Assembly (NCBI GenBank): GCA_021741645.1
Contig: JAIOXK010000002.1
Coordinates: 23,982-87,981, forward strand
Reading direction: 5' to 3'
Length of the DNA: 64,000 nt
Source of the DNA: Candidatus Nanopelagicales bacterium
Lineage (GTDB): Bacteria > Actinomycetota > Actinomycetes > S36-B12
Within the stretch, counting starts at the first letter, position 1; the number at the start of each line of letters is the position of its first letter. Below are positions 2,324-42,771 of this stretch, one piece after another. The translations under genes were made by a program, and so were the position numbers. Under the pieces are notes generated by a model, which saw nothing but the letters and a program-made list of their open reading frames with translations, made no database searches and was not told where the DNA came from.

Positions 2324-2557
2324 CCGGGGCATCGGCGGCGCTGCAACGGACGATGCGGACACCTTGACTGAAGTCCCCCATCGACGTAGCCAGTTGAAGC
2401 GCAACGGTTTTCGACCGCGAGCAGCCTCGGGGAATTGAGCCCCGGACCTACGCATTACGAGCCGTTCGCAAGCCCCCTGAGCCTACGCTCTTACTCGTGC
2501 ATACTCCGGGCTACCCCGGCATGTTCGGCCATATCTGCGCCTTGTTCCGGGGCATTC
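2324..2557. repeat. attP-like junction unit, copy 1 (degenerate)
   Basis: Homologous to 18301-18603 and 27048-27350; tRNA-Thr fragment with CCGGGGCAT arm repeats at 2324 and 2547 (the latter 86 nt from the fragment end, as in the other copies). Confidence 0.8.
2419..2461 (-). tRNA. 3'-half fragment of tRNA-Thr(CGT), mutated; att core, not a functional tRNA
   Basis: Reverse complement CTCGTAATGCGTAGGTCCGGGGCTCAATTCCCCGAGGCTGCTC: anticodon loop, mutated T-arm and acceptor 3' strand; no D arm. Confidence 0.75.
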
Positions 2558-2750
2558 CGCGACTCCCACGTCGAGAATCCACGGACCTCATGCCCGGCGC
2601 TTCAGCTGAACTCGGCACGCTTGCTCTGACGAAGCGAGTCGTCCACCACGTGCCCGAATTGGCGCCGTAAGCGTTGCAGAGGGTGGGCCTGTCAACGCCG
2701 ACTGAAAACTGACCCCCTGGCGATGATCGAAAATTGACCCCTCTCGGTGG

Positions 2751-3545
2751 CTATTCGGTCTTGGCGGGTGGGGTGCGGCCGAGGTCGCGGTCCTTGAGGC
2801 GGTAGCTGTCGCCTTTGATGGGGACGATGTCGGCGTGGTGGACGAGGCGGTCGATCATGGCGGCGGCGACGGTGTCGTCGCCGAAGACCTCGCCCCAGCG
2901 GCTGAAGGGCTTGTTCGACGTGACGATGACGGACGCCCTTTCGTAGCGGGCGGAGATGAGCTGGAAGAACAGGTTCGCTGCCTCGGGTTCGAAGGGCAGG
3001 TAGTCGATCTCGTCGATGATCAGCAGCGGGATCCGGCCCAGGCGCTTGAGCTCGTCGGGGAACCTGCCCGCGTGGTGGGCGTCGGCCAGGCGGGTGACCC
3101 ATTCGGCGGCGGTCGCGAACTCGACGCGGTGCCCGGCGTGACAGGCCTTGATCGCCAGGCCAGTGGCGAGGTGGGTCTTCCCGGTGCCGGGCGGTCCGAG
3201 GAAGATCACGTTCTCTCTCGCGGTGATGAAGTCCAGAGTTCCGAGGTGGGCGATCTGGTCGCGCTTGATGCTCGAGGCGTGGGCGTAGTCGAACTCCTCG
3301 AGGGACTTGCGGGCGGGGAACTTCGCGGCCTTCACGCGCAGCTCTCCGCCGTGCGCGGACCTCGCGGTGACCTCCCGCTCGAGGCAGGCGGCGAGGAACT
3401 GCTCATGGGACCAGCCCTCCGAGCGTGCCCGATCCGCGAGGCGGTCGATGGCCTGGCGCATCGTGGGGGCCTTCAACGCGCGGGTCAGATACGCCAGCTC
3501 CGCGGTCACGTCCGGCGCCGTGGCCGTCGTGGTTCGGGCGGCCAT
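2751..3545 (-). CDS. istB: IS21 helper ATPase IstB
   Basis: GPPGTGKTHLA Walker A, LLIIDE Walker B, TSNKPFSRWGEVFGD, IDRLVHHA. Confidence 0.95.
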   Translation of the reverse strand: MAARTTTATAPDVTAELAYLTRALKAPTMRQAIDRLADRARSEGWSHEQFLAACLEREVTARSAHGGELRVKAAKFPARKSLEEFDYAHASSIKRDQIAHLGTLDFITARENVIFLGPPGTGKTHLATGLAIKACHAGHRVEFATAAEWVTRLADAHHAGRFPDELKRLGRIPLLIIDEIDYLPFEPEAANLFFQLISARYERASVIVTSNKPFSRWGEVFGDDTVAAAMIDRLVHHADIVPIKGDSYRLKDRDLGRTPPAKTE

Positions 3546-4777
3546 CAGGCGACCGTCTCGTGCAGGCCGAATGCCCGGTCGTAGTCGGCCAGCGACCGGA
3601 CCTGCACGTCATCATCGGCGGGGACCGGTCCGGCGATCCGCCCGGCCCGCAGTCGCATCGCCGTCGCTGCCGCCGCATGAATCGGGTCGGTGATCGTCTG
3701 ATGCCAGCCCCAATGCCGGTCGTGGACGCCGACGACACGGTCGCCCCAGCGGACCGTCACCGTCGTCAGGTCCGCGAGGATGTCGATGCGGCGACCGATC
3801 GCGATGGGGTCGACGGAGTAGTCGTTCGACCCGATCCGCACGTAGTGGTCCCGCGGCAGCCGGGTCGACGCCGTCCAGCCCAGCCGCGGCATCACCGGCG
3901 GCAGGGTCAGCATCGCGGACCGGTCCGCCTCCAGCCGGTCGAACGGCCGGCAGCCCAGCGTGCGATGCATCCGCATGATCGCCTTGTCGTTCAGACAGGC
4001 GGACAGCTGGGCGTTGAAGTCCACCGGCGAGGTGAACGTCCGGCCGGGCAGGAACGAGGTCTCCAGATAGCCGTTGAACCGCTCGACCAGCCCCTTGGCC
4101 TCCGGGTCGCCGGGCTTGCAGATGATCACCTTGACCCCGAGCATCCCGCGGAACGCCTCGAACTCGTCGCCGAGCTTGACCTTCCCGCCGCGGCGTGAGC
4201 TCAGCGCGGACTCCCCTTCCCAGACCAGCGCCCGCGGGACCGAGCCCCAGCCCGACAGCACGTCCCAGTGACCAGCGATCAGGTCCTCGGCCTGCCGCGT
4301 GGGGATCATCACCGCGCCCGGCAGCCGCGAATACCCCGACGTCATCGTCAGCACCGGCAGCCTCGCGACCTGGCCGAGACCGACCGGGATGTCGACCGGC
4401 GGGAACCACAGATCGCATTGCGCGAGCTCCCCGGGCGCGTACGACGTCCGCGACGCCGGATCCCGCGGCGCATAGATCGGCCGCAGTTCGGCCACCCGTG
4501 CACGGAACACGCTGATCGACCGAGTCCAGCCCACCCGTTCGGCGATCACCGTCGCCGGCATGTCCGGGAACTCCGCCAGCAGCTCCCGGATCCTCGGATC
4601 GAACGCGTCGACCGCCGACCCCCTGGGCGGCCGCTCATACTTCGGCGGCTCATCACACGCCAACGCGCTCTTCACCGTGTTCTTCGAGATCCCCAACCGG
4701 CGGGCGATCGCCTTGATCGGCATCCCCTCCGCCCGATGCAGCCGACGGATCTCTGCCCAGTTCTCCACACTGATCAC
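3545..4777 (-). CDS. istA: IS21 transposase IstA
   Basis: N-terminal HTH (IKAIARRLGISKNTV), PGELAQCDLW, KGLVER; overlaps the istB start. Confidence 0.95.
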   Translation of the reverse strand: MISVENWAEIRRLHRAEGMPIKAIARRLGISKNTVKSALACDEPPKYERPPRGSAVDAFDPRIRELLAEFPDMPATVIAERVGWTRSISVFRARVAELRPIYAPRDPASRTSYAPGELAQCDLWFPPVDIPVGLGQVARLPVLTMTSGYSRLPGAVMIPTRQAEDLIAGHWDVLSGWGSVPRALVWEGESALSSRRGGKVKLGDEFEAFRGMLGVKVIICKPGDPEAKGLVERFNGYLETSFLPGRTFTSPVDFNAQLSACLNDKAIMRMHRTLGCRPFDRLEADRSAMLTLPPVMPRLGWTASTRLPRDHYVRIGSNDYSVDPIAIGRRIDILADLTTVTVRWGDRVVGVHDRHWGWHQTITDPIHAAAATAMRLRAGRIAGPVPADDDVQVRSLADYDRAFGLHETVA

Positions 4778-5059
4778 TCCCCAATCGTTGAGGAGGGGTC
4801 AGAATTCAATCCTCGCTGCGGGGTCAGTATTCAGAGATCGCTGACAGGGCCTGGCCGCCAACGCTGCGGTGCGCAGCCCATAGGTGGTGAGGAGCTGCCA
4901 ATGGCCCATTCGACTGCGCTGTTCGCATGAGCCGATCGACCGGCGGGGTTCTGCAGTTGGGCCGAGCCGGTTGCGAACGAACTCCGATGCGCTCCCGGCG
5001 TGCCTCGCAAAGCTGCGGTGTAGGACCTCCCGGCGTGAGTCGGTAGGTAGGCTCGGGCC

Positions 5060-5860
5060 ATGGAGAATCCAGCACCTGCCCCTGACTGGGTGACGTTGCT
5101 GACGCTTGAGCAGTCGAGTTTCGTGCCGAAGTACATTCAGCTTGCCGATCGGCTTCGCAACGCCCTGCAGGCACTCCCCGAAGGAACCACGGTTCCCAGT
5201 GAGAAGGAACTGATGGACCTCACCGGTGTGGGTAGGGCTACCGCAAGGGCCGCCGTCACCGAGCTCGTCCGGGAAGGGCTCCTCGTCGCGCACCGCGGAC
5301 GCGGGACCTTCAAGCAACGAGCGCGACTCGACACAAGTCTGGCAAGGCCGAGCGGCTTTTCGGAATCGATGACGGCGTTGGGGCGCAAGCCCAGCAGTCG
5401 CGTTCTCTCGGTAACAACCCTTCCGGCCAACGAGTCTTTTGCGGGCCGCCTCGGGGTCGATGTCGGGACGAGTCTGCTCTGCATCGAGCGCCTCCGGCTC
5501 ATAGATGATGAGCCTTGCATGCTGGAGCGTACGCACCTGATCGCTGGACTCGTGCCCGGACTGGCTGAACTCGACCTCACCGGCTCGTTGTACGAGATCC
5601 TTCGCGTGAGGTACGGACTGGTTCCTTCGCGCGGCACCGAGTCCATCCTGTCGCTCAACGCGGACGCGCACGTTGCTCACATTCTGGGCGTCCCCATTGC
5701 CGCTGCGGTTCTCGCGACGACTCGCGTGACCCACACATCGTCCGGGAGTCCGGTCGAGTACACGTTGCGTCACGCGCGCGGTGACCTGTGCTCGTTCACG
5801 GTCTCCCTGGATTCGGGTCCGGCTGCGGACGGCAGTCCCGTGGGCCTGCTGGTCAGCTAG
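5060..5860 (+). CDS. GntR (HutC/UTRA) transcriptional regulator
   Basis: PSEKEL...GVGRATARAAV..L..EGL....GRGTF wHTH plus UTRA domain. Confidence 0.9.
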   Translation: MENPAPAPDWVTLLTLEQSSFVPKYIQLADRLRNALQALPEGTTVPSEKELMDLTGVGRATARAAVTELVREGLLVAHRGRGTFKQRARLDTSLARPSGFSESMTALGRKPSSRVLSVTTLPANESFAGRLGVDVGTSLLCIERLRLIDDEPCMLERTHLIAGLVPGLAELDLTGSLYEILRVRYGLVPSRGTESILSLNADAHVAHILGVPIAAAVLATTRVTHTSSGSPVEYTLRHARGDLCSFTVSLDSGPAADGSPVGLLVS

Positions 5861-6765
5861 CCAGGGACGTCAAGCCCGTCCCACATGTGGAGGGCCTCCA
5901 CGAATGCGGGCGCCTGGACGATGCGGGCCGCTGCTCGGCAGCCGAAGTGGGCTGCTTCGCTGAGATTGAGGCCACGAATCAGCGCGACCGCGAGTGCCGC
6001 GTTGAACGCGTCCCCGGCGCCGCTGGTGTCCACGACCCGCACGGGCACCGCGGGCACGATCACGGCCTGCCCCCCGCGAGATTGAATGAGCGCCCCGCGG
6101 CTGCCCAGCGTGATGACAACCGCGTGGGCGCCCAGTTCGAGCAGCGCGGCGGCTTGCCGTTCCGGTTGGGTCTCCCCGGTGAGGAAGTGCGCTTCAGTCT
6201 CGTTGGGGGTGACGACGTCGCAGAGGGGGAGGAGCGGGGAGATGGCGGCCGGTTCGGTTGCCGGTGCCGGATTGAGTATTGCGAGTACTCCACTGGCGCG
6301 GGCCACGTTGAGGGCTTGTGCCGCCGCGGACACGGGGATCTCCAGGCTCACGAGGCAGACATCACTGCTGCGGATCAGTTCTGCCCGGGAGTCGACTGTC
6401 GCTGCACTCATGGCGGACAAGGCCCCCGGTGCAATGACGATGCTGTTCTCTCCACTTGGTTCGATCATCAGTACGCCCAACATGGTCGCAGCGTCCTGGT
6501 CGATGACGACTCCGGCGACGTCCACTCCGTGGTCGCGCAGCGTCGCGGTGGCAAGGTCTCCCATCGGGTCACTGCCAATGGCAGTGATGATGCATGACGT
6601 GCCTCCGAGCTTGGCGGCTCCGATGGCTTGATTCGCTGCCTTGCCTCCGCCTACATAACTCAGGTTGTCGCTGATCAGTGTTTCGCCGACCAGTGCGCTT
6701 CGCGGCACCCGGAAGCTGAGTCCGACCCCGGACCCTCCGACGGTGCACACTCGGCCAGGCTTCAC
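5857..6765 (-). CDS. Ribokinase/PfkB family carbohydrate kinase
   Basis: GGKAANQA, PNETEA and DTSGAGDAF PfkB signatures. Confidence 0.9.
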   Translation of the reverse strand: MKPGRVCTVGGSGVGLSFRVPRSALVGETLISDNLSYVGGGKAANQAIGAAKLGGTSCIITAIGSDPMGDLATATLRDHGVDVAGVVIDQDAATMLGVLMIEPSGENSIVIAPGALSAMSAATVDSRAELIRSSDVCLVSLEIPVSAAAQALNVARASGVLAILNPAPATEPAAISPLLPLCDVVTPNETEAHFLTGETQPERQAAALLELGAHAVVITLGSRGALIQSRGGQAVIVPAVPVRVVDTSGAGDAFNAALAVALIRGLNLSEAAHFGCRAAARIVQAPAFVEALHMWDGLDVPG

Positions 6766-7532
6766 TAGTACATGCTCCGTCCGCCGTCGACATTGATCAA
6801 CTGCCCTGTCAGGTAGGAGGCCTCGTCCGAGGCCAGGAACGCGATGGCGCCGACAACGTCTTCGGGTGCGCCGATCCTCTTGATCGCCTGGTCTCGACGA
6901 GACTGAAGAGTCTCCTCCCTGTCGAGCACCCCCTCCTCAAAGTACTGCTCGAATCCCTCCGTCAGAGTCTTTCCAGTGGAGACGGCATTGACGGTGATCC
7001 CGTCGTCCCCAAGGGCACGCGCCAGCGATCGCGTCAGGCCGATGAGCGCCCCCTTGCTGGCGGCGTAGTGGGCGAGGTGAGATGACCCGGTGAGGAAGGT
7101 GGCACTGGCCATCGAGATGATCCGCCCCCAGCCCTCTGCCTGCATCCCCGGGGCAAAGGCCTTCGCGGTGAGCCACGCCGCCCTGACATTGACGTCGAAA
7201 ACGTTCTCCCACGTCTCCAGCGTGACCTCGTCCCATGCCCTCCACGGGAAGACCGCTGCGTTGTTAACGACGATGCTGACCGTGCCAAGGTCCCGCTGGA
7301 CTTGAGTCGCCATGTCGAGGATCTGCGCGGGGTCGGCAAGGTCCGCCGCCACGGTGATGGCACGCACGCCTGATGCTCGTATCGCCCGTGCGACGTCCTC
7401 GGCCTGGTCGGGATGGGATCGATAGTTGACGGCGACGTCTGCACCTCCACGTGCCAGGCGCAAGGCGGTTGCCCGCCCGATGCCTTGGGAGGCGCCCGTC
7501 ACGAGCGCAACCTTCCCCGTGAGCGCGGGCAT
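6765..7532 (-). CDS. SDR family NAD(P)-dependent oxidoreductase
   Basis: TGASQGIG, NNAA, YAASK. Confidence 0.92.
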   Translation of the reverse strand: MPALTGKVALVTGASQGIGRATALRLARGGADVAVNYRSHPDQAEDVARAIRASGVRAITVAADLADPAQILDMATQVQRDLGTVSIVVNNAAVFPWRAWDEVTLETWENVFDVNVRAAWLTAKAFAPGMQAEGWGRIISMASATFLTGSSHLAHYAASKGALIGLTRSLARALGDDGITVNAVSTGKTLTEGFEQYFEEGVLDREETLQSRRDQAIKRIGAPEDVVGAIAFLASDEASYLTGQLINVDGGRSMY

Positions 7533-7535
7533 CTG

Positions 7536-8297
7536 CTAGCCCCTCTTCAGGACGTGCTGCTCGTAGGCCGCGATGCACTCGTCGAACCGCTGCTCGCTGC
7601 GCTCGTGACCCACCAGGTGAGGACTTGCGAACACCAGCGGGTGACCTCCAAGTTGCAGCAGAGTGGAGGCCGTGCCAGCCGTGATCGCGTCCATCACTGC
7701 GAGGTTGAGCACGCTTGCACTGGCGCCCACTCGCTCATCCAAACCATCCAGTTCGACGAGTGCATCCCCAACGGGGACCTGGTTGTCGATCGTCAGGTCG
7801 GCAATGTCGGCCAGCCGGCGAGCCCCGCTGCGCTCCTCGGAGGCCGCTCGCGAGTAGGCGCCGCTGGTGACGGCGATGACGGTGAGTCCAGCTTCCAGGG
7901 CGGCGTCGGCGAAGTCCATGATGACGTGCTCGACGCCGCTGGAGCTGAAGATGATGACGGCGTCTCCGGTGCGAGTGTCGGCTTCGTCGAAGATCACCTT
8001 CCCGTAGCCCGGGACACGTTCCAGGAACAGGGCCTGACGCAGGCCGCTGCCCCCCACCACGGGCGTGAAGTAGGTGACGGCGAGTTCGACGATGGGGTGG
8101 AACCCGACGACGGCGCCGATGCGGGGGTACGCCTCCTCGCACATCATGCGCGAGTGCCCGGCGCCGAACACGTGGACCACGCCACCGCGATGGATTGTCT
8201 CGGCGCAGCGGTCGGCAGCGCCTTGGATCGCTGCGGCCTGGTGGCGAAGCAGGGTGACACGTTCGGCGATGGCGTTGAGGTAGGTGAGGGAGGTCAC
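7536..8297 (-). CDS. SIS-domain sugar isomerase
   Basis: VFGAGHS, IFSSSG, DNQVPVGDA; GTG start at 8297 after an AGGAG RBS. Confidence 0.85.
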   Translation of the reverse strand: MTSLTYLNAIAERVTLLRHQAAAIQGAADRCAETIHRGGVVHVFGAGHSRMMCEEAYPRIGAVVGFHPIVELAVTYFTPVVGGSGLRQALFLERVPGYGKVIFDEADTRTGDAVIIFSSSGVEHVIMDFADAALEAGLTVIAVTSGAYSRAASEERSGARRLADIADLTIDNQVPVGDALVELDGLDERVGASASVLNLAVMDAITAGTASTLLQLGGHPLVFASPHLVGHERSEQRFDECIAAYEQHVLKRG

Positions 8298-8328
8298 GGG
8301 CTTCTCCTGTGTGTGGGTGGTCGTCGGA

Positions 8329-9285
8329 TCATGCGGGGGTAAAGGACAGTGCGCGGGCGGGATTAGTGGTGAGGAATGCGTCGACGACGGATGCTCCGAG
8401 TTCGTCGCGGAACCTTGCGGCAAGGAGGGTCAGGACCCCAGCCATGCCAGGAGCGCCGGCGGTGCGGCGCAGAGATCGCCGTGCGATGTCACCGCCCAGG
8501 ACGATGCGGTCGGCGTGACCGTGGGTCACCAGGACCTTGACGGCGTTGACGACGTCACTGAGGGGCCGGTACTTCTCCCGGAACAGCCCGTCGATGCAGA
8601 TGGTGGCGCCCTGCTCGGCAACCGCGGTGAACGTGGCGAGATCCGGGGCTCGGTCAAGATGGCTCAGGATGACGCTCTCCGCCGGAACCCCCGCGTCACC
8701 CAGGAGGGCTAGCTGCTCCAGCGCATAGGTGCCGTGCTCCGTGTGCGTCAGTACTGGAAGCGCCGTGAGGTGATGCACCTCAGCGACGGCCCTCAACCAC
8801 TGCCGCTCCTGCGGCCGTGCCGCCCAGTAGCTGGTCGCGACTTTCAGCAGGCCGGGTCGCACACCGGTCGGTTCGCGATCCGGTGTCGGCTCGCCATCAT
8901 TCGCATCTATGCCGGCGACACACTCATGCAGCAGCAAGGCCACGAGCTGATCATGGCTCGCCGAGCGCGCCCAGTGGCTGGCCGCGTAGTAGGAGTCGGT
9001 GTGGAAACCGGATGTCGCGATGATCTTCACTCCGGTCGCTCTGCTCGCGCGCTGGAGTATCAGCGGGCGACGGCCGCAGCCAGCGGGAAGGGCGTCCACG
9101 ACCGCACCACCACCCTCGTCATGGAAGGCGTCGAGCTCGGCCACGGCCTCGTCCTCGTCGTCGAGAAGAAGGTCCGGGTCACGCTCTACCGCTGGTCCGC
9201 CCGCAATGATGAGGTGGTCGTGGGTATCCACCGCGCCGAGGGATGCAGGGTCGAGGTCTCCTAGGACGGTCCGCACGACCCTCAT
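8329..9285 (-). CDS. Phosphotriesterase-like amidohydrolase/lactonase
   Basis: VRTVLG, HDH, bridging K (LLKVA), THTE, SHLD and GGD metal ligands. Confidence 0.88.
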   Translation of the reverse strand: MRVVRTVLGDLDPASLGAVDTHDHLIIAGGPAVERDPDLLLDDEDEAVAELDAFHDEGGGAVVDALPAGCGRRPLILQRASRATGVKIIATSGFHTDSYYAASHWARSASHDQLVALLLHECVAGIDANDGEPTPDREPTGVRPGLLKVATSYWAARPQERQWLRAVAEVHHLTALPVLTHTEHGTYALEQLALLGDAGVPAESVILSHLDRAPDLATFTAVAEQGATICIDGLFREKYRPLSDVVNAVKVLVTHGHADRIVLGGDIARRSLRRTAGAPGMAGVLTLLAARFRDELGASVVDAFLTTNPARALSFTPA

Positions 9286-10553
9286 GCGGCCTCCTCCAGG
9301 GTTGCACCCGATCGGACAAGGCGATCGCGCAGCAAGTCGAAGGGAACCTCACCGACAAGGCATCGACGCCGCGCCGCCAACGCGGCCGACTCGCCAGCCG
9401 CTTGGCCCATGGCCATGCACGTGCCCATGGACCGGGCGCTCGCGTGGGCGGCGTGGGTCGCGGACAGGCAACGACCCGCCACGACGACGCCTTGGACCGT
9501 CGACGGGAGCAGCGTGGTCCATGGGACGCCGTAGACGCCCGAGCCCCCCACATGCAGCCACCTGGTTGTGTCAGAACTGAGATCCTCGACCGGTGCGCCG
9601 CACAGCGCGATCTGGTCTTCGCTCAACCTGCCCGAAAGGACGTCGTCCTCGGTGAGGGTACGGCGCCCCTCAACTCGTCGCGTCTCTCGCACCCCGGTCA
9701 TCGCGCCGATCGCGGAGATTCGAGCGGCTTCGAAGCCTGGCATCATCAATGTCAGGAAGTGCGCCCAGTCGTCGACCTGCAGCAGGGCATCCATCTCCAT
9801 GCGCCCGCACGAACATGGGTCATCAAGGTCGGGCGCGGCCACACGTGTGAGTGCGGTCAGTACGGTGCCGGGGATTCCGGACTCGTGCAGGCTGCCGCCA
9901 TTGCCCGGCAGGTTCATGCCGGACCGCCGGCCTGCGTCGACGAGTTCCTTTAGGTGTGGTCGGCCGAGCGCGCGGAAGCGTGCGATGTCAACAGGGGCCA
10001 TGCGGAACGTCAGGGTCGCAGGCTGGGTGAGTTCGGTATCAGGCTGCATGGGTCCACCGGCTCGAGCCACGAGATCCGCGTCACCGGTGGCGTCTACGAA
10101 GGTGTGTGCCTGCAGGCGGACCAAGCCGGCTCGCCCGGCGATGATGACGGCGGAGACGCGATCGTCGACCAGTACAGCATCGGCGACGACCGAGTGGAGC
10201 ATGGTGGTGACGCCCGCGTCACGCAGTAGCCGTGCCCAGACAAGCTTCAGCGTCTCGGGGTCGTAGGTGTAGCCGAGGCCTGAGCCGAAGCTGTTGGGGC
10301 GCTCGCGCAGCACGCCGCGTTCACGGAGCATCGTGACCGGCAGGTCCGGCAGTCCCGATACCACCTTGCGCCCATCCGCCCCCGCGGTGAAGAAGGCATA
10401 GAACGTGTCCAGCACCGCCGTGCTCGTGCCTCCAGGAAACGGGAGGCGATCCACGAGGACGGTCCGTGCGCCCGCCTGCGCGGCGGCGAGGGCGGCGATG
10501 CATCCTGCGGACCCGCCCCCCAGTACGGCCACGTCGAACTCCAGGGCAGTCAT
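9282..10553 (-). CDS. FAD-dependent oxidoreductase
   Basis: DVAVLGGGSAG, DATGDADL, GVRETRR, AGRCLSATH, MAMGQAAG. Confidence 0.88.
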   Translation of the reverse strand: MTALEFDVAVLGGGSAGCIAALAAAQAGARTVLVDRLPFPGGTSTAVLDTFYAFFTAGADGRKVVSGLPDLPVTMLRERGVLRERPNSFGSGLGYTYDPETLKLVWARLLRDAGVTTMLHSVVADAVLVDDRVSAVIIAGRAGLVRLQAHTFVDATGDADLVARAGGPMQPDTELTQPATLTFRMAPVDIARFRALGRPHLKELVDAGRRSGMNLPGNGGSLHESGIPGTVLTALTRVAAPDLDDPCSCGRMEMDALLQVDDWAHFLTLMMPGFEAARISAIGAMTGVRETRRVEGRRTLTEDDVLSGRLSEDQIALCGAPVEDLSSDTTRWLHVGGSGVYGVPWTTLLPSTVQGVVVAGRCLSATHAAHASARSMGTCMAMGQAAGESAALAARRRCLVGEVPFDLLRDRLVRSGATLEEAA

Positions 10554-18024: not shown

Positions 18025-18026
18025 TC

Positions 18027-18995: not shown

Positions 18996-19045
18996 TGTGT
19001 GCCTTTCGATTGTCGTGCCGGGAATTGCCATGGGTCCGGGGCCGA

Positions 19046-19354
19046 TCAGGTGACGTCGACGTGGACGAGGCCGTCGATGATGCGTACCGGGAACGTGCGC
19101 ACGGGTTCGGTGGCCGGAAGGCTGAGCGCTGCGCCAGTGCGCAGATCGAATCGTGATCCGTGCAGCCAGCACTCGATCGTGCTGCCATCCACCTCGCCTT
19201 CGGACAGCGGGACGGCGCCGTGAGTGCATTCGTCGCGCAGCGCGAAGACCCCCTCCGCAGTTCGGACGATGCAGACGTCGATCCCGGCGACGCGGACGCC
19301 GACGGGCTCGCCGATGGCCGCGCTGTTGAGGTCACACGCCGGCTGCCACGTCAT
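19046..19354 (-). CDS. Rieske [2Fe-2S] ferredoxin
   Basis: CTH...CWLHGSRFDLRTG. Confidence 0.9.
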   Translation of the reverse strand: MTWQPACDLNSAAIGEPVGVRVAGIDVCIVRTAEGVFALRDECTHGAVPLSEGEVDGSTIECWLHGSRFDLRTGAALSLPATEPVRTFPVRIIDGLVHVDVT

Positions 19355-19779: not shown

Positions 19780-19786
19780 GACCGGG

Positions 19787-20083
19787 CTACCGCGCCAGCC
19801 GCAGGTGCCAGGCGTCCGGCCCGCTGTGGAGGTAGTCCACCGTCAGGCCGTCGGGGTACCGGCTGCGCGCCTGGTCCAGCAAGGGCAACGGGTCATGCGG
19901 GGCGATGAGCACCATCGCCCCACCGCGGCCAAGCGAGTCCAGCGCCCCGAAGATGGCGCCGTGCCGGATGGCATGCGGGATGGTGCGCGCGTCGAGCACG
20001 GGGTCGGCGTGCGCCCCGGCGTCCGAGCAGCCGCAGCCCGTGCTCACCTCGGTGACGGGAAGGGTCGGGTAGGGCTGGCTCAT
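19787..20083 (-). CDS. DUF2249 domain protein
   Basis: CGC, LDARTIPHAIRHGAIF, APHDPLPLL, GPDAW. Confidence 0.82.
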   Translation of the reverse strand: MSQPYPTLPVTEVSTGCGCSDAGAHADPVLDARTIPHAIRHGAIFGALDSLGRGGAMVLIAPHDPLPLLDQARSRYPDGLTVDYLHSGPDAWHLRLAR

Positions 20084-20150
20084 GGGTTCCTCGCAGGGGT
20101 CGGCTGGCGTCCAGACTCGCAACATTACTACAGTATGTGCTGTGTTAAAT

Positions 20151-20843
20151 ATGGGACCGGCACCGGCCCGTCGCAGCGATCGGGCGGCCGCCCTGACCCG
20201 GCCCCGTGCGCGGGTGCTGGAACTGCTCCAGCAACTGGACTCCCCGGTGTCCGCCGAGGACGTCGCACGTCGGTTCGGCCAGCACGTGAACACGGTTCGC
20301 CTGCACCTGGACTACCTCGCCCAGACCGGCCTGGCAGTGCGCGAGCGCGCCCCAGGCGCCGGTCGTGGGCGCCCCTCCTGGCATTACCGCGCCAATCCGG
20401 ACCGTCCCGAGCCCGATCCGCGGGTACGCGAGTACAGCGCCCTCGCCGGTGCCCTGGCCGCCCACATCGTCCGGACCAGCCTGCTGCCCACGGACGACGC
20501 GCACGCCGCCGGCCTGGAGTGGGGCCGCCAGGAAGCGCGCGAGCGCGGCCTCCGCGGCACGTCCGGTGCGGACGCACGCCGCACCGTGGTGTCAATCCTC
20601 GACGAACTCGGATTCGCCCCCGCCGCGAACCAGCGGCAGACGACGGTGCACCTGACGAACTGCCCGCTGCTGGACGTCGCCGCGCACTACCCCGACGTGA
20701 TCTGCCAGGTCCACCGAGGACTGATCGCGGGCTTGCTCGAGGCGCTGGGCAAAGACCCCGAGGGAGCCGACCTGCGACCTTTCTCCGACCCCGGATCCTG
20801 CCGACTGCACCTAGACGCCAGCAATGCTTCGACGCGGTCATGA
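20151..20843 (+). CDS. HTH transcriptional regulator with C-terminal Cys/His sensor domain
   Basis: HVNTVRLHLDYL HTH, GRGRP, NCPLL...CQVHRGL. Confidence 0.85.
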   Translation: MGPAPARRSDRAAALTRPRARVLELLQQLDSPVSAEDVARRFGQHVNTVRLHLDYLAQTGLAVRERAPGAGRGRPSWHYRANPDRPEPDPRVREYSALAGALAAHIVRTSLLPTDDAHAAGLEWGRQEARERGLRGTSGADARRTVVSILDELGFAPAANQRQTTVHLTNCPLLDVAAHYPDVICQVHRGLIAGLLEALGKDPEGADLRPFSDPGSCRLHLDASNASTRS

Positions 20844-21979
20844 GTGACGACCTGGCCGGGCCTGTCCAGCGGTCCGTTCCCTCGCCGAGGCTGCTCAGCG
20901 GCAACGTCCATGGCGGGCGGACCCGGGTGCGGGGACGCGTTGCCCTGCTGCTGCTCGGCGGCGTCTCGATGCTCCTGGGGCTGTCCGCGGGACTGATGCT
21001 CCTCGGGCTGCCGGCCCCGATCACGGCCGAGCGGCTGCTCGAGGTGCACGGGCAGCTCATGATCGTCGGGTTCCTGGGCACCTTGATCGCGCTGGAGCGG
21101 GCGATCGCATTGAGGCGGGCATGGGCCTACGCCGCACCCCTGGCCACGGGCGTCGGGGCGCTGCTCCTGGTCACCCCCGTGCCCATGGCCGTGGGACTCG
21201 CGGTGCAGGCCGTCGGCCTCGGGATCCTCGTCACCATCTATGCCGCCGTCTGGCGCCGTGCCGCGTCGACCGCGCTGGCGATCCAGTGGCTCGGCTCCTT
21301 CCTTGCCTTGGCCGCGGGCCTGCTGTGGCTGGCGCAGGTGCCGACCGGCGCGCTGTTCCCCCTCCTTGCCGGCTTCCTCGTGCTGACGATCGCGGGAGAA
21401 CGCCTGGAGCTCGCCCACGTCGCCTCTCCCCGACCAGGCGCCGCCCGGGCGCTGATGCTGATCTCCGCGGCGGTCGCCATCACCAGTGCTGCGGCTCTCC
21501 TGTGGCCGACTCCGGGCAGCGAGCTGTTCGGTGCGTCGCTTCTGGCGACTGTCCTGTGGCTCCTGCGCTTCGACGTGGCCACGCGCACGATCCGGTCCGT
21601 CGGGCTGCCCCGCTACACCGCGGTCAACCTCCTCCTGGGCATGGCGTGGCTGGCCGTCGCCGCATTCACGTGGCTCACGCTCGGGCCGCAGCCCGATGGG
21701 CCGGGCTACGACATCGTGGTGCATGCGATCGGCCTGGGCTTCGCCATGTCCATGGTCCTGGCGCATGCGCCGATCATCCTGCCGGCGGTGCTCATCCGGC
21801 CCCTGCCGTACCGCCCGGTGCTCTACCTGGCCACGTTCGCGCTGCAGGCGTCCCTGCTCCTGCGGGTGGCCGGTGACGTCCGCGGGTCGGGCTGGGCCTG
21901 GCAGTCCGGCGGCGCCGGAAACGTCGCCGCCCTCATGGCCTTCGTCGCAATGGCCGCGGCCCTGGTGATCCGCCGATGA
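20840..21979 (+). CDS. Polytopic membrane protein associated with nitrite reductase (NnrS-like)
   Basis: HGQLMIVGFLGTLIALERA, TIAGERLELA, YDIVVHAIGLGF; many TM helices. Confidence 0.7.
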   Translation: MSDDLAGPVQRSVPSPRLLSGNVHGGRTRVRGRVALLLLGGVSMLLGLSAGLMLLGLPAPITAERLLEVHGQLMIVGFLGTLIALERAIALRRAWAYAAPLATGVGALLLVTPVPMAVGLAVQAVGLGILVTIYAAVWRRAASTALAIQWLGSFLALAAGLLWLAQVPTGALFPLLAGFLVLTIAGERLELAHVASPRPGAARALMLISAAVAITSAAALLWPTPGSELFGASLLATVLWLLRFDVATRTIRSVGLPRYTAVNLLLGMAWLAVAAFTWLTLGPQPDGPGYDIVVHAIGLGFAMSMVLAHAPIILPAVLIRPLPYRPVLYLATFALQASLLLRVAGDVRGSGWAWQSGGAGNVAALMAFVAMAAALVIRR

Positions 21980-24585
21980 CCCGTTCCTCCTGGCACATCC
22001 GCACCTCAGCCGTCGTCCTGGCCTGGATGACGGCTGCCGCCACCGCCGCAGCCATGCACCGCCAGCTGCCCGCAGCCACCTGGCTCATGGTGCACCTGCT
22101 GCTGCTCGGCGCGGTCACGACCGCGCTGCTCGTGTGGAGCTGGCACTTCAGCGTCGCCGTCCTGCACGCGCCGCAGGCGCCCACGCGCCGCGGCGAGGCG
22201 ATCCGGATCACCACGGCCAACATCGGGGCGCTCGGCGTCATCAGTGGGGTGATGGCGAATGCCCCCGCCGTCACCATCCTCGGGGCCGCGGCCGTCGCGG
22301 CCGCCGTCGCCGCACACGTCGTGGCACTGGCGATCCGCCTCCGCCATGCACTCCCGGGCCGCTTCGCGTTCACGGTCCGCGCCTACATCGGCGCCGGGCT
22401 GCTGCTGGTCCCGGGCATCGCGCTGGGCGTCGTGATGGCACGCGGATCCTGGGACGCCAGCACCTACTCCCGGCTGCTCCTGGGCCATGTCACGGTCAAC
22501 CTCCTGGGCTGGGTGGTCCTGCCGATCCTCGGCACGCTGGTGACCCTGTGGCCCACGATGCTGCACACCCGGCTGGCGCCCGATGCCGAGCAGAAGGCCC
22601 GCCGCGCCCTGCCCCTGCTCATCGGCGGCACCCTCGTCACCACCACAGGAGCGCTGACCGGACTGGACCTGCTGGCCGCGGCAGGGGTCGCCGGCTACCT
22701 GATCGGCATTGGCCTGACCGTCGCGCCCATGGTGACCGAGATGCGCCAGCGACCCCCTTCGGCCTTCGCCTCCTGGTCAGCCCTGGCCGGTGTCGCATGG
22801 CTGTCAGGAACCCTGGTCGCCTTCGGCATCGCGCTGGTCGGCGGATCAGCCGACGCACTGAGCGGATTCGCCGGGCAACTGGTCGCCGCAGCCCTGATCG
22901 GCGGCGTGCTGCAGGTCCTGCTCGGATCGCTCAGCTACCTGGTCCCCGTCATGGTGGGCGGAGGCCCGGCAGCGATGCGACGGCGCAACGCCCGCGTCAA
23001 CCGGGCGATGGCCCCACGCCTGGTGATGCTGAACACGGCCCTCGCCGTCTGCGTCCTGCCCTCCCCCAGCGCCGTCCGCGTGCTCGCCTCCACCCTCGTC
23101 CTCGTCGCCGTCGGGTGGACGATCCTGCTCATCGCCGACAGCCTGCGCCGGAGCCCGGGCGACACCTCGAGGACCACCGCCGACAGCCCGGCACCGAAGC
23201 CCCCTGCCCATCACAGCGGCGGCGGCGTGGTCGCCCTGGCCGTCGTGCTGCTGGCCATCGTCGGGGGCGTCGCCTACGACCCGGCCGCCGTCGGCGCGGG
23301 AACGGTGTCCGCGGCCCCCGCATCCGCAGGGGTCACCGCCACTGGGGAGGCCACCGAGGTGACCGTCACCATCGAGGGGATGCGCTTCACCCCCGACCGG
23401 ATCCAGGTCCCGGCAGGCAACACCCTGACCGTGACCGTCATGAACGGCGGGGACGACGTGCACGACCTGGTCCTGGAGACCGGCCAGCGCACCCCCCGAC
23501 TGTCGCCCGGGCAGGCCGCGACGATCGAGGTCGGCGTCATCGGCCGGCCACTCGCGGGCTGGTGCTCGGTCGCCGGACACCGCCAGATGGGCATGGTGCT
23601 CAGCATCGAGGCGATCGGCGGGACCGAAGCGGCGACGGCGGCCAGCGGGCAGACCCCTGCCGGACACACCAGCAACGGCGCCGCGGCCGGCAGCGAACCC
23701 GTCGCCGTGGATGGCATCGACCTGATGGCCGAGCCCGGGCCGGGCACCGCGATCCGCGACCCACGCCTGCCGCCCGCCGCGGCCGCCCGCATCCACCGGG
23801 TGCGCCTGGTCGTGACCGAAGTGGAGGCAGAGGTCGCCCCCGGCGTCCGCCAGACCCGGTGGACGTTCGGCGGCACGGCCCCCGGGCCGGTCCTGCGCGG
23901 CAAGGTCGGCGACACGTTCATCATCACCCTGGTGAACGACGGCAGCATCGGGCATTCCATCGACTTCCACGCCGGCGCCCTGGCGCCCGACGAGCCAATG
24001 CGCACCATCGCCCCGGGAGAGACTCTGGCGTACCGGTTCACGGCGACCCGAGCCGGGATCTGGATGTACCACTGCTCCACCATGCCGATGTCCATGCACA
24101 TCGCCAACGGCATGTTCGGCGCCGTCATCATCGACCCACCCGACCTCGCACCCGTCGACCGCGAGTTCGTCCTCGTCCAGTCCGAGTCCTACCTCGGGCC
24201 CCAGGGCGGCACTGCCGATGCGGACTCCATCGACGCCGGCCAGCACAACCTGGTCGCGTTCAACGGCTACCCCATGCAGTACGACCACGCACCGCTGCAG
24301 GCCACCGTGGGCGACCGCGTCCGCATCTGGGTCCTCGCCGCCGGGCCCAACGTCGGGTCGTCCTTCCACGTCGTCGGGGGCCAGTTCGACACCGTCTACC
24401 GGGAGGGTGCCTACGAACTGACCCCCGGAACCGGCGGCTCGCAGGTCCTCGGACTGTTCCCGGCCCAAGGCGGCTTCGTCGAGCTCGTCCTCCCCGAAGC
24501 CGGCACCTACCCATTCGTCTCGCACGTCATGTCCGACGCCGAGAAGGGAGCCCACGGCCTCCTGCACGTCAGCAGGGCGGATTGA
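21976..24585 (+). CDS. nirK: Membrane domain + cupredoxin + copper-containing nitrite reductase (NirK/AniA-like) fusion
   Basis: N-terminal TM domain; extra type-1 Cu site (HDL...CSVAGHRQMGM); NirK motifs HSIDFH, YHCS..MSMHIANGM, SFHVVG, YPFVSH. Confidence 0.85.
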   Translation: MTRSSWHIRTSAVVLAWMTAAATAAAMHRQLPAATWLMVHLLLLGAVTTALLVWSWHFSVAVLHAPQAPTRRGEAIRITTANIGALGVISGVMANAPAVTILGAAAVAAAVAAHVVALAIRLRHALPGRFAFTVRAYIGAGLLLVPGIALGVVMARGSWDASTYSRLLLGHVTVNLLGWVVLPILGTLVTLWPTMLHTRLAPDAEQKARRALPLLIGGTLVTTTGALTGLDLLAAAGVAGYLIGIGLTVAPMVTEMRQRPPSAFASWSALAGVAWLSGTLVAFGIALVGGSADALSGFAGQLVAAALIGGVLQVLLGSLSYLVPVMVGGGPAAMRRRNARVNRAMAPRLVMLNTALAVCVLPSPSAVRVLASTLVLVAVGWTILLIADSLRRSPGDTSRTTADSPAPKPPAHHSGGGVVALAVVLLAIVGGVAYDPAAVGAGTVSAAPASAGVTATGEATEVTVTIEGMRFTPDRIQVPAGNTLTVTVMNGGDDVHDLVLETGQRTPRLSPGQAATIEVGVIGRPLAGWCSVAGHRQMGMVLSIEAIGGTEAATAASGQTPAGHTSNGAAAGSEPVAVDGIDLMAEPGPGTAIRDPRLPPAAAARIHRVRLVVTEVEAEVAPGVRQTRWTFGGTAPGPVLRGKVGDTFIITLVNDGSIGHSIDFHAGALAPDEPMRTIAPGETLAYRFTATRAGIWMYHCSTMPMSMHIANGMFGAVIIDPPDLAPVDREFVLVQSESYLGPQGGTADADSIDAGQHNLVAFNGYPMQYDHAPLQATVGDRVRIWVLAAGPNVGSSFHVVGGQFDTVYREGAYELTPGTGGSQVLGLFPAQGGFVELVLPEAGTYPFVSHVMSDAEKGAHGLLHVSRAD

Positions 24586-24684
24586 ATGCCATACCGCCAT
24601 CACCGATGCGCGCAGGCTGGCCGGGGGCACCGGCGGGCCGCATGCGTCGCATCCCTGCATCTGGGACCCGTGCGATGCGGCGGA

Positions 24685-26121
24685 TCAGGCGGGCACGGGA
24701 GCGCCTTCCAGCCAGGCCACGACGTCTGCGGCTGTCCACCCGTGCGGGAATGCGGCGTTGAGCCGGGTGGGGCCGTCGAGGTCGGCACCGAGGGTGACCA
24801 GGGCGGGCTCGTCGTAGCCGTCGCGTCGGTGCTGTCCCATGCCGACCGTGGCGGACAGGCCGTTGCATAGGCACACCCGCCCCGCCGTGTCCTCGGCGCG
24901 GCCCCCCTTGAGCAGGTACGTGCGTTCGGCCTCCGCCGGGCAACGGTAGCCGACCGAGCCGTCGTCCTTCTGGAACGGCGAGCGCAGGAAGCCCAGGTCG
25001 CACTGGCGGCTGCGAGCGGCGTAGACCTGCGGGTCAGTGATCGTGCCCGGCAGGTCGACGACCTTGAACGGGAATCCGGTGGGCGATGCGGTGGCACTGG
25101 TGCGCACCGACACCGCGTCGTCGGCCAGGCCCGCCCGCAGGCGCCGGCGCACGTCATCATTCAGCCCGGACTCGGCGGCCAGCGCAAACACGGTGCCGGC
25201 CTGGATCCCGCGGGCGCCCGCCGCCCTGGCGGCGGCGAGGCCCTCCGGAGTGCCGGTGGCCCCGGCCATCCAGAACGGCAGTCCCAGGGCGGCGATCCTC
25301 CCCGCGTCGGGCTCGTCGCGCGGTCCGAACAGCACGTTGCCGTCGCCGTCGAGCTCGGGCCGCCGGGGCGGGGCGTTGTGGCCACCGGCGGGCGACGCCT
25401 CGAGCACGAAGCCGTCCGGGCGGATCGCCGGATCGCGGGCAAGGTAGGTCGCCAGCACGTGCGAGGACACGATGGCCAGGAACACCGGCCGGTGCAGGGC
25501 CGGCAGCGACGGGCCCAATAGGGCGGCCGGGTCGAGGGTGACCGCGTGCGCATTCTCGTCGGCCCCGTGCACGTCGACGGCGTACTGCGCAGGCCGGCCG
25601 GCGGCTAGGGAGTCGAGCAGTGCAGGGAGCTGCCGCGGCACACCGGCCCCGACGAGCACGACGTCGACCCCGGCCAGCATCGCCCCGAAGACCATCGTGG
25701 GGACCGCCATCTGGATCTTCTCCAGCAGGTTGATCCCCACCAGCCCGTCATGGCCATCCCGGGCCAGCCACACCTCGGCGAACGATCCGAGAACGGCCAG
25801 CTCGACCGACGCCGGCTGCGGGTGCAGGACCAGTCGGGGCACCGGGCGATACGAGGCACCGGAAGGGCGCCCGGCAGGCAGGAAGTAGCGGGCCAGGGCG
25901 CGGCCGGCCATCGCCTGGTCCGGGAAGTGCGCGAGCGCCCGCCGATAGTGGCCACCCGGGTCTCCGTCCTGAAGGCGGCGGGCCAGGGCAAGGTCGAGGG
26001 CGGTCCCGGACACGACCCCGAGCTGCCCGCATCGGGCGACCGCGGCCGCCAGCTGCCACGAGGAGACCTGGACGCCCATGCCTCCCTGGATCATGGGGGG
26101 CAACGCCTCGACAGCGACCAT
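24685..26121 (-). CDS. Nitronate monooxygenase / FabK-like FMN enzyme
   Basis: IQGGMG, AGGHNAPPR, GIQAGT, Cys-containing C-terminus (CDLG, CPAE, CLCNGL). Confidence 0.85.
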   Translation of the reverse strand: MVAVEALPPMIQGGMGVQVSSWQLAAAVARCGQLGVVSGTALDLALARRLQDGDPGGHYRRALAHFPDQAMAGRALARYFLPAGRPSGASYRPVPRLVLHPQPASVELAVLGSFAEVWLARDGHDGLVGINLLEKIQMAVPTMVFGAMLAGVDVVLVGAGVPRQLPALLDSLAAGRPAQYAVDVHGADENAHAVTLDPAALLGPSLPALHRPVFLAIVSSHVLATYLARDPAIRPDGFVLEASPAGGHNAPPRRPELDGDGNVLFGPRDEPDAGRIAALGLPFWMAGATGTPEGLAAARAAGARGIQAGTVFALAAESGLNDDVRRRLRAGLADDAVSVRTSATASPTGFPFKVVDLPGTITDPQVYAARSRQCDLGFLRSPFQKDDGSVGYRCPAEAERTYLLKGGRAEDTAGRVCLCNGLSATVGMGQHRRDGYDEPALVTLGADLDGPTRLNAAFPHGWTAADVVAWLEGAPVPA

Positions 26122-26152
26122 CGGGACTCCTGTTCACGGGCCGGGATCAAGC

Positions 26153-26190
26153 AAGGTTACGGCAGCGTAGGTTACGGTACCGTAAGTTAT
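26153..26190. promoter_or_regulatory. Candidate operator (palindrome plus direct repeat)
   Basis: Perfect palindrome TTACGGTACCGTAA at 26172-26185 and AGGTTACGG twice, between divergent genes. Confidence 0.5.
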
Positions 26191-26248
26191 CAGAATCCGG
26201 AAGCTTCGAGCCCAGGCGGGACGTTGGTCACTGGCCGCCGACCCGCGC

Positions 26249-26773
26249 ATGGCTGACACTTGGCCGATGTTCGTGGCCCAGGAAGTCCAGCTGCCGTTCG
26301 CCATCGACGCGGCCGGCGCCCGACTGCTCGCGCTCCTGCGCCTTGATGGACTGCAAGGCAGTTCCGAGGACGCGTTCGACGTGGGACGAGGCCTGTTCAT
26401 GAGTGCGGGGGTCGGCGCGGTGTCGAAGCAGGTACTGGTCCAGCTGCTGCGTCCCTACCCGCACGACCGGGTCCTCATCGTCCCCTTGCGCTGGGTGGCC
26501 ACCGGCCCGTCCGGGGCGATGTTCCCGCAGCTCGACGGGAACCTCGAACTCGCGCCCGTAGATGAGGACCGATCGACCCTGCGGCTCAACGGCGCCTACC
26601 GCCCACCCCTGGCCGCGGTCGGCGCCCGCCTCGACCAGTTGCTGCTCCACCACGTCGCCGACGCCACCATCCACCGCCTTCTGCAGGACATCGCGGCCGC
26701 CATCACGGCGCTCCCCGAGGCCAGCCTCGTCTTCGACACTGACCGCCACGAAGCGCACGGAATCCAGCCATAG
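26249..26773 (+). CDS. Hypothetical protein (possibly SRPBCC-like)
   Basis: GC3-rich ORF; FPQLDGNLEL...LRLNGAYRPPL. Confidence 0.65.
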   Translation: MADTWPMFVAQEVQLPFAIDAAGARLLALLRLDGLQGSSEDAFDVGRGLFMSAGVGAVSKQVLVQLLRPYPHDRVLIVPLRWVATGPSGAMFPQLDGNLELAPVDEDRSTLRLNGAYRPPLAAVGARLDQLLLHHVADATIHRLLQDIAAAITALPEASLVFDTDRHEAHGIQP

Positions 26774-27047
26774 GTGTGGCCCCGCATGGCGGCGCCAGCC
26801 TGCACGTCTCGCATCGCGTCGGGCACACGGCGCCCTGATCCGGTGAGGGCCAGTACCTCCGACTCGAAGTCCGCCCGGGCGCCTGCCAGCCATTCGCCGT
26901 GAATCGATACTGGTGGCGAGCACGCCCACTACGCGGCCCTCAAGCGAGAGCCACAACCCGCATGGGAGCGGCACAGAACCTCGGGCGCTTCACTGGCGCG
27001 GCTAGGTGTCTGAATTTCGTGTCGGCCCGAGGCCGCCGACAAAGGGC

Positions 27048-27350
27048 GTTGACCTACGCATGAAATGTGTAGGTCAACGAAACCGGCCTCACGACCGGGG
27101 CATTTCCGGGGCGTTTGCTCGCTAGAAACGGATGAATCGGACCCGTTGACTAGGTGGCCGAAACGTTGTAATCTGTTGCAGCGCAACGGATTTCGACCGA
27201 GAGCCGCCTCGGGGACTTGAACCCCGGACCTACGCATTACGAGCCGTTCGCGACCCCACAACGATCATGCTCTTACTCGACCCTACTCCGGCTTACCCCG
27301 CCATAGGCGGCGCTGCGCACGCCATGTTCCGGGTCATTTCCGGGTCATTT
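27048..27350. repeat. attP-like junction unit, copy 3
   Basis: Inverted repeat 27047-27079, CCGGGGC(A/G)TTT x2 (27095-27116), tRNA-Thr 3' half, CCGGGTCATTT x2 (27329-27350); same spacings as copy 2. Confidence 0.9.
27201..27243 (-). tRNA. 3'-half fragment of tRNA-Thr(CGT); att core, not a functional tRNA
   Basis: Reverse complement CTCGTAATGCGTAGGTCCGGGGTTCAAGTCCCCGAGGCGGCTC. Confidence 0.85.
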
Positions 27351-42768: not shown

Positions 42769-42771
42769 CAG

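Follow-up and report, generated by a model that had tools for sequence, protein, structure and literature searches.

Probable CIME-like units without integrases, stacked with an integrative and conjugative element behind tRNA-Thr(CGT) in a Candidatus Nanopelagicales genome

Tandem accretion of integrative elements and the cis-mobilizable elements (CIMEs) associated with it are already known. In the descriptions cited here, CIMEs have lost their integration and transfer genes and retain attL and attR (PMC5704250); those of Streptococcus salivarius are 1.2-13 kb long, form composites of two to three elements and always lie farthest from the target, and 215 CIMEs at one tRNA-Lys of Streptococcus agalactiae are quoted in the same account (PMC7563491). 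For Dehalococcoides, 15 islands at ssrA without an integration module were, in the part of the account used, proposed to be CIMEs (PMC3146451). In the present study a stretch of 64,000 nt from a Candidatus Nanopelagicales bacterium (GenBank assembly GCA_021741645.1, contig JAIOXK010000002.1, positions 23,982-87,981; hereafter the window) was analyzed, in which three multi-gene units without integrase, E0, E1 and E2, are separated by junctions, each with a 3' half of tRNA-Thr(CGT) as core and repeat-bearing arms on both sides, and are followed by an integrative and conjugative element (ICE) encoding a divergent tyrosine integrase, P0001. We regard E0-E2 as probably CIME-like elements stacked with the ICE behind tRNA-Thr(CGT), with arms that are still live and likely serve as substrates of the tyrosine integrase of the ICE.

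As far as the cited passages go, the array resembles CIMEs and tandem accretion as described for ICESt1/ICESt3-related elements and the S. salivarius composites in that integrase and transfer genes are missing, att sites are kept, units stand in tandem with an ICE at one target, cargo is metabolic and sizes start at about 1 kb (PMC5704250, PMC7563491); as in S. salivarius, the units in the window lie distal to the ICE. Unlike CIMEs as portrayed there, arrays here reach up to 13 junctions on a single contig and about ten arm motifs at one tRNA, integrase-less units are often those nearest to the tRNA, and the cassette left arm differs from that of the ICE; array length, the several arm codes and the integrase-less units next to the tRNA are what is unusual. 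The ssrA islands of Dehalococcoides share the tandem arrangement at one RNA gene with direct repeats in between, but use the serine recombinase DsiB and a 20-bp repeat, and arm-type sites do not appear in the description as cited (PMC3146451). The flexible island fGI1 of 'Ca. Actinomarinales', likewise from an aquatic actinobacterium, consists of small cassettes at tRNAs with partial tRNA repeats that move between genera, whereas the main text is without the word integrase and, in the portion cited, without arms or a partner enzyme (PMC7771536). Tycheposons also place cargo at tRNAs, with newcomers pushing older cargo outward and partial tRNAs in between, but are defined, according to the preprint sections used, by an integrase of their own and often a replication module, neither of which E0-E2 possess (bioRxiv 10.1101/2020.12.28.424599). 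The junctions themselves resemble lambda-type attP sites, as a core with two-sided arm repeats extends over about 250 bp (240 bp are listed for the attP of L5 in Table 1 of PMC4111918) and the partner enzyme has a predicted N-terminal domain of three strands plus helix, as in the layout cited from PMC8138268; unlike such attP sites, they lie between integrase-less units, and the P0001 family is without Pfam or PDB sequence match. Searches of the open literature, outside subscription papers and bioRxiv supplements, turned up neither multi-code arm-bounded arrays nor arrays from this lineage.

Integrons possess an IntI platform at attI, attC sites that form imperfect hairpins, and promoterless, mostly single-gene cassettes read from Pc. 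The array shares with them a variable row of cargo units including toxin-antitoxin pairs, but IntI and a resident platform integrase are missing, the junctions are tRNA halves with direct arm repeats, and the units are multi-gene. The original prediction, made from the sequence of the window, had called the system integron-like; this describes the outcome and not the family, because the integrase rides on a passing ICE, with no fixed platform, and neither an IntI platform nor attC is present. The system is best read as a variant of CIME-type accretion, not as an integron.

From the chromosome towards the tRNA the array consists of E0 (18.4 kb), E1 (16.0 kb), E2 (8.7 kb) and the ICE (38.2 kb), and the same arm repeat is present at both ends of all four units. 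The source genome (G000) is a metagenome-assembled genome (MAG) of 157 contigs with 66% G+C and 83.7% completeness, whose three best sequencing runs are from lake water. A non-coding unit of 226 nt occurs in three copies (starts 2343, 18378 and 27125) with 76-83% identity to copy 2, each comprising, as had been proposed, a 43-nt tRNA-Thr(CGT) 3' half, up to and including the anticodon loop, together with arms; the cores were thought to be identical, but show 93, 100 and 98% identity to the tRNA of the genome. The arm repeat CCGGG(G/T)CATTT lies 95, 106 and 106 nt to the left of cores 1, 2 and 3 and 86 nt to the right of all three, just as had been described. Of the further claim that 11-bp repeats flank all copies, tandem repeats were found at copies 2 and 3, whereas junction 1 is worn, with a single repeat on each side. 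Exact copies of the repeat number ten in the 2.39-Mb genome, nine of them at junctions of this array. The intact tRNA-Thr(CGT), expected to the right of the window, was located by ARAGORN at 89454-89528 of the contig carrying the window (C55), on the minus strand and 1.5 kb past the right end; within the window ARAGORN called zero tRNA genes. A count of further units on both sides had been suggested as well: a fourth core with right arm, found by BLAST at C55 7922-8070, 16 kb to the left of the window, bounds E0, and the ICE lies on the tRNA side. The units do stack at one tRNA. Just beyond the distal core, a short remnant of a left-arm tail (L001:7872-7889) lies next to two toxin-antitoxin-like genes; it is possible that the island formerly reached further out than this core. 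The features of units and junctions are given below (window positions, unless C55 is named).

1-2418, no strand: right end of E0 (E0 = C55 7965-26399)
2324-2418, plus: worn left arm of E0, with one repeat (2324-2334), promoter-like TTGACT-17-TAGCCA (2364-2392) and GTTG-N5-CAAC (2393-2405)
2419-2461, minus: core 1, tRNA-Thr(CGT) 3' half with three mismatches to the genome tRNA
2462-18453, no strand: E1, with sugar ABC transporter and catabolic genes, two GntR regulators and IS21
2462-2557, plus: right arm of E1, one repeat (2547-2557)
2751-4777, minus: IS21 inside E1 (istB 2751-3545, istA 3545-4777)
18304-18453, plus: left arm of E1, with core half-site palindrome with 5-nt spacer (18304-18328), tandem repeats (18348-18369), promoter-like TTGACG-17-TAACCT (18399-18427) and GTTG-N5-CAAC (18428-18440)
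18454-18496, minus: core 2, tRNA-Thr(CGT) 3' half without mismatch
18497-27200, no strand: E2, with cupin, Rieske, hemerythrin, DUF2249, HTH regulator, nitronate monooxygenase and a copper nitrite reductase-like fusion
18497-18603, plus: right arm of E2 (107 nt), tandem repeats (18582-18603)
21976-24585: copper nitrite reductase-like fusion (nirK) in E2 (TIGR02376, 149 bits, under its cut-off of 296)
27051-27200, plus: left arm of E2, with palindrome (27051-27075), repeats (27095-27116), promoter-like element (27146-27174) and GTTG-N5-CAAC (27175-27187)
27201-27243, minus: core 3, tRNA-Thr(CGT) 3' half with one mismatch

In anatomy the junctions are of lambda-type attP form, with a core and arm-type repeats on both sides at fixed spacing. 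Within type A, the arm type of the window, right repeats stand at 86 nt in 16 of 21 arms (87 nt in four, 84 nt in one) and left repeats at 106 nt in 8 of 13, and homology extends over about 107 nt on the right and about 150 nt on the left, ending at the last motif. Left-arm repeats are conserved to 92-93%, compared with 60-74% in the spacers. The promoter-like element TTGACG-17-TAACCT is found in all 13 long type-A left arms within two mismatches; the promoter call stays tentative, because a promoter scanner scored 8/12 matches at junction 2, under its threshold of 9, and returned no site there. The left arm of the ICE is short and devoid of palindrome, promoter-like element and GTTG-N5-CAAC, as are those of other integrase-bearing elements of the P0001 family (G020, G028, G110), the exception being an integrase-bearing type-G element of G010 with a long left arm. 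Among 85 left flanks of many arm types, 55 have GTTG-N5-CAAC about 10 nt from the tRNA 3' end, and four of the five exact sites of a longer form of this palindrome in G000 are at att junctions; outside the window the motif was noted at C19:1358 and C112:8563. Extra copies of the core half-site lie at outer arm edges (18304-18328 and 27051-27075; at +143/+152 in right arms of types Ba, E and F) as palindromes with 5-7 nt spacers and are possible integrase operators or secondary sites. A swap of cargo at this outer half-site (+143/+152, types Ba, E, F) was considered and found unsupported: type-Ba homology ends there, but several shared stretches continue 50-100 nt beyond.

The units comprise 9-18 genes each, on both strands and with their own regulators; E0 encodes a sugar ABC transporter, an enolase-family protein, Gfo/Idh/MocA, an AP-endonuclease-like protein and an E1 dehydrogenase. 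E1 had been taken for a 16-kb sugar catabolism module, and sugar genes are indeed present, together with the IS21. The supposed lack of integrases was borne out, as the P0001-family hidden Markov model (HMM), PF00589 and a panel of 12 integrases revealed neither a tyrosine recombinase gene nor a remnant in E0-E2; PF00589 had zero matches on the whole contig, and the resolvase-type serine recombinase domain PF00239 zero matches in the genome as far as it is complete. Pfam scans of the called genes, which left a few short open reading frames (ORFs) without family, yielded no relaxase, coupling protein or type IV secretion system (T4SS) gene in E0-E2, and no ICE remnant was found in them. The traits of CIMEs seen in E0-E2 are the missing integrase and transfer genes, core and arms at both ends and the tandem position with an ICE, the function of the arms being predicted. 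A transfer origin (oriT) or other common non-coding signal linking cassettes to the ICE was not found, matches of 18-37 nt being at chance level. The cargo of E1 was not detected in 32 relatives of the genus at E<=1e-60, and 11.2 kb of E0 cargo were matched in relatives only by scattered single genes. Rfam gave no relevant family, viral contigs neither an integrase relative nor a junction, and plasmids zero matches.

The element next to the tRNA is assigned to the ICEs because it combines a TrwC relaxase, a coupling protein, a pilin and a small HTH_17 gene. Its features are:

27244-64000 and beyond the window, no strand: ICE, with integrase, Xis-like gene, T4SS pilin, coupling protein, TrwC relaxase, Fic and SacI-like restriction-modification
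27244-27350, plus: right arm of the ICE, tandem arm repeats (27329-27350)
32966-34363, minus: P0001, divergent tyrosine integrase with R-K-HxLR-W-Y motifs
34302-34598, minus: small HTH_17 protein, likely Xis (weak match, E 0.003)
47550-49397, plus: type IV coupling protein
53094-56396, minus: TrwC (MOB-F) relaxase-helicase
C55 89408-89429: repeats of the short left arm of the ICE, beyond the window and beside the intact tRNA

P0001 had neither a Pfam nor an NCBIfam match, and a PDB sequence search returned 0 matches; in the ESM Atlas it resembles tyrosine integrases (score 0.98 for a protein 99% identical). Its true start is probably further inside the called ORF. The structure model (mean pLDDT 84.6) has three strands and a helix at residues 49-100, which is the layout of arm-binding domains as given in the cited part of PMC8138268, and the N-terminus is predicted from this model to bind arms. 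The original prediction had named this gene as a candidate partner for the cassettes, and it is a likely one because its ICE has the same arm repeat at both ends; the enzyme sits, however, on a passing ICE and on no fixed platform. Cargo of the ICE at 27523-31440, 31693-32892, 50343-52975 and 62633-63769 consists of a 1305-aa protein with merely a weak match to the anti-phage Upx (E 0.001), Fic, a kinase-TPR pair and a SacI-like restriction-modification pair. An intergenic motif containing CACCGTTGACC is repeated in the ICE (35707-35830, 38989-39044, 41230-41274, 42075-42130, 42764-42819, 56681-56805), is present on contig C142 too, and likely represents operators or promoters of an ICE regulon. 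The backbone of this ICE also occurs with an unrelated integrase family and other arms (G012:C10 54-97 kb; G003:C27), which by sequence comparison suggests an exchange of integrase modules inside one ICE family.

In relatives, the unit search gave matches in 50 of 61 genomes, many just at the tRNA itself and several with 8-13 matches. The set of junctions drawn up comprises 87 junctions in 19 genomes, all of one genus (g1), taken from 36 stretches, with 53 inter-junction segments, three weak core matches having been removed. The core is common to all arrays, and the arms divide into the repeat types mentioned. Screened with the 12-integrase panel, 40 of the 53 segments had no integrase (median length 3.6 kb), 12 a full gene and one a remnant. 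Motifs at both ends matched in 28 of 41 typed segments, against a mean of 7.9 and a maximum of 17 in 20,000 shuffles, a comparison which overstates the contrast, as the genomes are related and the data tested had also served to define the motif classes. The P0001 family falls into three subclades with 53-62% identity between and 74-96% within them: the motif CCGGGGCATTT goes with P0001 and its 79% homolog, CCGGTGTA/CGGTTTA with the 54-55% subclade, and CCGGGTTAT with the third, while GGGGGCG and AAAGGGCG arms adjoin unrelated PF00589 integrases. Arm motifs track integrase subclades, as arm-type sites would, and binding is predicted. The idea that one integrase serves the cassettes holds within the window; in relatives the arrays combine some ten arm types, which belong with several integrase families; therefore several integrases, not one, serve the arrays. 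Cargo identity and order vary among relatives, as had been anticipated, and Pfam scans of 93 and 48 selected proteins found toxin-antitoxin pairs, regulators, transporters and enzymes.

Beyond the genus, the pattern from palindrome to core was found in 38 stretches among 185,579 species genomes, the named taxa being Actinomycetes/Actinomycetota, two 'Candidatus Nanopelagicales' and one Bifidobacteriaceae, at whose locus no junction was seen; of nine matches in a metagenome scan, just one (L127) was a type-A left arm at a junction. A second array system is present at tRNA-Lys(TTT) (G000 C19, C41 and C112; G012:C10 8878-41094; G028:C3 601344-622150; G018:C8; G024:C48); G000 has two called tRNA-Lys(TTT) genes with an arm behind each, and Lys-type cores occur inside the Thr array of G012. 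In G017 (C1 1632805-1654575; L048, L049) a 21.7-kb type-F segment holds many short unrelated genes and no recombinase was seen in it, and finer cassette boundaries may be hidden there. At one junction of G029 (C2, about 579600-579760) the 13 nt that open the core form a tandem array of many copies.

Signs of movement come from arms and cargo with different partners. The left arm of E1 is 95% identical to a G028 arm that borders other cargo (the MFS gene beside the tRNA: 72.6%). The 5.9-kb nirK module of E2 has 85% identity to a module of G012 in a cassette with tRNA-Lys core and other arms, and 89% to one in G003, near which a tRNA core was not found. An AbiE pair lies behind a type-A arm in G026 and, with 92% identity, inside a type-Ba unit in G032. 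In G012 two different neighbours precede the same type-A cassette start (3.8 kb, 97% identity); the switch lies at the core, and the two occurrences represent either two copies or two population variants. Two species share an 11.5-kb nitrate reductase module (90.5% identity) that follows a type-E right arm in both but differs in its left end (G012:C3 46358-57675; G029:C7 16878-28211). As to decay and fusion, G012 has an ICE backbone of the family of the window ICE between type-A arms, in which an integrase was not found and a contig gap lies; in G010 an ICE is followed by a worn junction and then by metabolic cargo of about 45 kb, with a type-A left arm at its end; in G021 a truncated type-A left arm is fused to a type-Ba left arm. 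These intermediates offer a route by which deletions could create integrase-less units and give cargo new arms. The G010 locus had been considered as an ICE with a long left arm, which was dropped when the hidden junction was found. Its cargo (C1 3290616-3336230; L036-L038), without integrase, comprises apparent hydrogenase maturation, RuBisCO, Calvin-cycle and sugar uptake genes, as read by inspection of N-terminal sequences alone.

From lambda-type recombination it would follow that the crossover lies in the anticodon loop, that the newest unit comes to lie next to the tRNA, and that any right-left pair of the same type is excised with the help of Xis. Applied to this locus, an element would integrate by crossover in the anticodon loop, restore the tRNA with its own 3' half and displace older units outward. 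Deletions that take away the integrase and transfer genes, or that join neighbouring elements across a junction, would give rise to units, leaving old cargo with new arms; decay and fusion of integrative elements is the likely origin of the CIME-like units. An integrase could then excise whatever extends from a right to a left arm of its own type, either alone or along with the ICE. Travelling in cis with the ICE, units would pass from cell to cell, and an ICE departing alone would leave them behind, which would explain their spread and an integrase-less cassette at the tRNA. Selection for mobility is likely to preserve the arms, and units are likely moved by passing ICE integrases. As cis transfer can do without the left arms of the cassettes, the good preservation of these arms is what most hints at an additional excision of single units in trans.

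Several observations weigh against live CIME-like units descended from ICEs, in addition to the bias of the shuffle test. Ends were unmatched in 13 of the 41 typed segments, some through worn hidden junctions, and 12 further segments could not be typed. An excised circle or empty site was not observed in Logan unitigs, which break at every 43-nt core, so that circles and skipped units are not visible in them; an apparent 'goes back' joint was rejected as a circle, being E1's own right arm mapped onto that of E2. Descent of E0-E2 from ICEs is putative, because their long left arm is unlike the short one of the ICE and no integrase-bearing parent with a long cassette left arm was found. Junction 1 has lost one repeat per side. 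Divergent integrases such as P0001, itself without Pfam match, can escape screens. Arms exceeded four-fold sites of linked cargo in conservation in two of four pairs (83 vs 66%, 81 vs 67%) and were about equal in two (82 vs 79%, 84 vs 83%), with spurious ORFs in two of the counts, and the arm/cargo pairs could stem from integrase-bearing ancestors. Finally, 10 of 87 junctions, in six genomes and flanked by a wide variety of left and right arms, share a 20-nt insertion within the T-arm of their tRNA half, and its reintegration at the intact gene would disrupt the tRNA. Examples of this insertion, which resembles actinobacterial REP-like palindromes, are at G028:C4 885671 and 892788 and G018:C3 429380-433529 (L030, L031, L058), with more in L156, L158, L165 and L169. 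Unitig depths in the three runs (chromosome-side contig 28.2/62.3/29.4; array pieces about 15-21, 33-50 and 16-20) give no share of cells, and the runs may be the source of the genome; the depths were not used as evidence.

A more far-reaching picture is an integron-like exchange without resident integrase, in which a standing pool of cassettes with about ten orthogonal arm codes would be excised, reordered and reinserted singly at tRNA-Thr(CGT) and tRNA-Lys(TTT) by whichever matching ICE integrase passes, the long left arm being a selected cassette-specific end; we offer this as a tentative possibility. Of about the same, low probability, in our estimation, is a dedicated non-autonomous family whose members have a standard arm pair without integrase, acquire unrelated cargo and are moved singly in trans. 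All 12 complete segments that end in a long type-A left arm are without integrase match, and the palindrome, promoter-like element and fixed spacing of that arm are absent from the short arm of the ICE; mobilisation in cis requires the right arms of cassettes alone, yet left arms are equally well kept. Arms are also about as similar within genomes as between them (right 0.80 vs 0.78, left 0.70 vs 0.72). An integrase is missing from the tRNA-proximal segment in 9 of 14 arrays, including the closed genome G017, and G012 has four integrase-less units on the tRNA side of integrase-bearing ones; departure of an ICE after cis transfer would, however, likewise leave an integrase-less unit at the tRNA. 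Of 173 family genomes, 25 contain tandem type-A repeats with one mismatch allowed (reversed control 0); seven of the 25 have any P0001-family integrase match and three the P0001 subclade. The incompleteness of most genomes, however, may conceal a parent with long left arm, and some of the 25 matches have no junction nearby. Intermediates of decay and fusion do exist, and the lack of a transfer origin or other non-coding signal shared by cassettes and ICE also speaks against such a family.

Compared with the CIME-like reading, it is improbable that the junctions are inert scars, cargo being kept for its metabolic value and arms looking conserved just because they are young. The worn junction 1, degenerate and hidden junctions in relatives and the two of four comparisons without excess arm conservation over silent sites would fit this, but motifs are conserved while spacers diverge, spacing is nearly constant across species, homology stops at the last motif and not randomly, and cores 2 and 3 are near perfect. 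A true integron-like platform, in which an integrase resident at the tRNA would capture cassettes and every junction would have a promoter to express them, is very improbable and largely refuted already. It would account for the long rows of units 1-4 kb in size, for the toxin-antitoxin pairs that many of these units have in common with superintegrons, and for the promoter-like element of type-A left arms; the integrase, though, lies inside the ICE and is missing from many arrays, G017 among them, the sites are attP-like and not attC hairpins, the multi-gene units have regulators of their own, and the gene adjoining each right arm in the window faces the junction, opposite to the promoter-like element. 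Hardly credible is an assembly chimera joined via the repeated core, despite the fragmented MAG and the breaks of unitigs, as similar arrays stand on contigs of 0.5-3.7 Mb in G010, G012, G017, G020, G028 and G029 and a single unitig or a clean series of unitigs covers each of E1 and E2 with its own arms, the order of units in G000 resting on the assembly.

Since it combines a single integrase and a single Xis-like gene with four arm pairs that vary naturally, the window is a compact system in which mobilisation of CIMEs in cis and in trans could be compared, and integrases with one core and different arm codes could become orthogonal integration tools. Island finders based on integrases miss such units, and the partner integrase has no Pfam match. 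Partial tRNA repeats in genomic islands are usually taken as scars. Here they have complete, type-matched arms, hence much of the accessory genome may stay addressable by integrases that are present only intermittently, and the potentially addressable cargo includes genes for nitrite and nitrate reduction, sugar use, hydrogenase and the Calvin cycle as well as toxin-antitoxin pairs.

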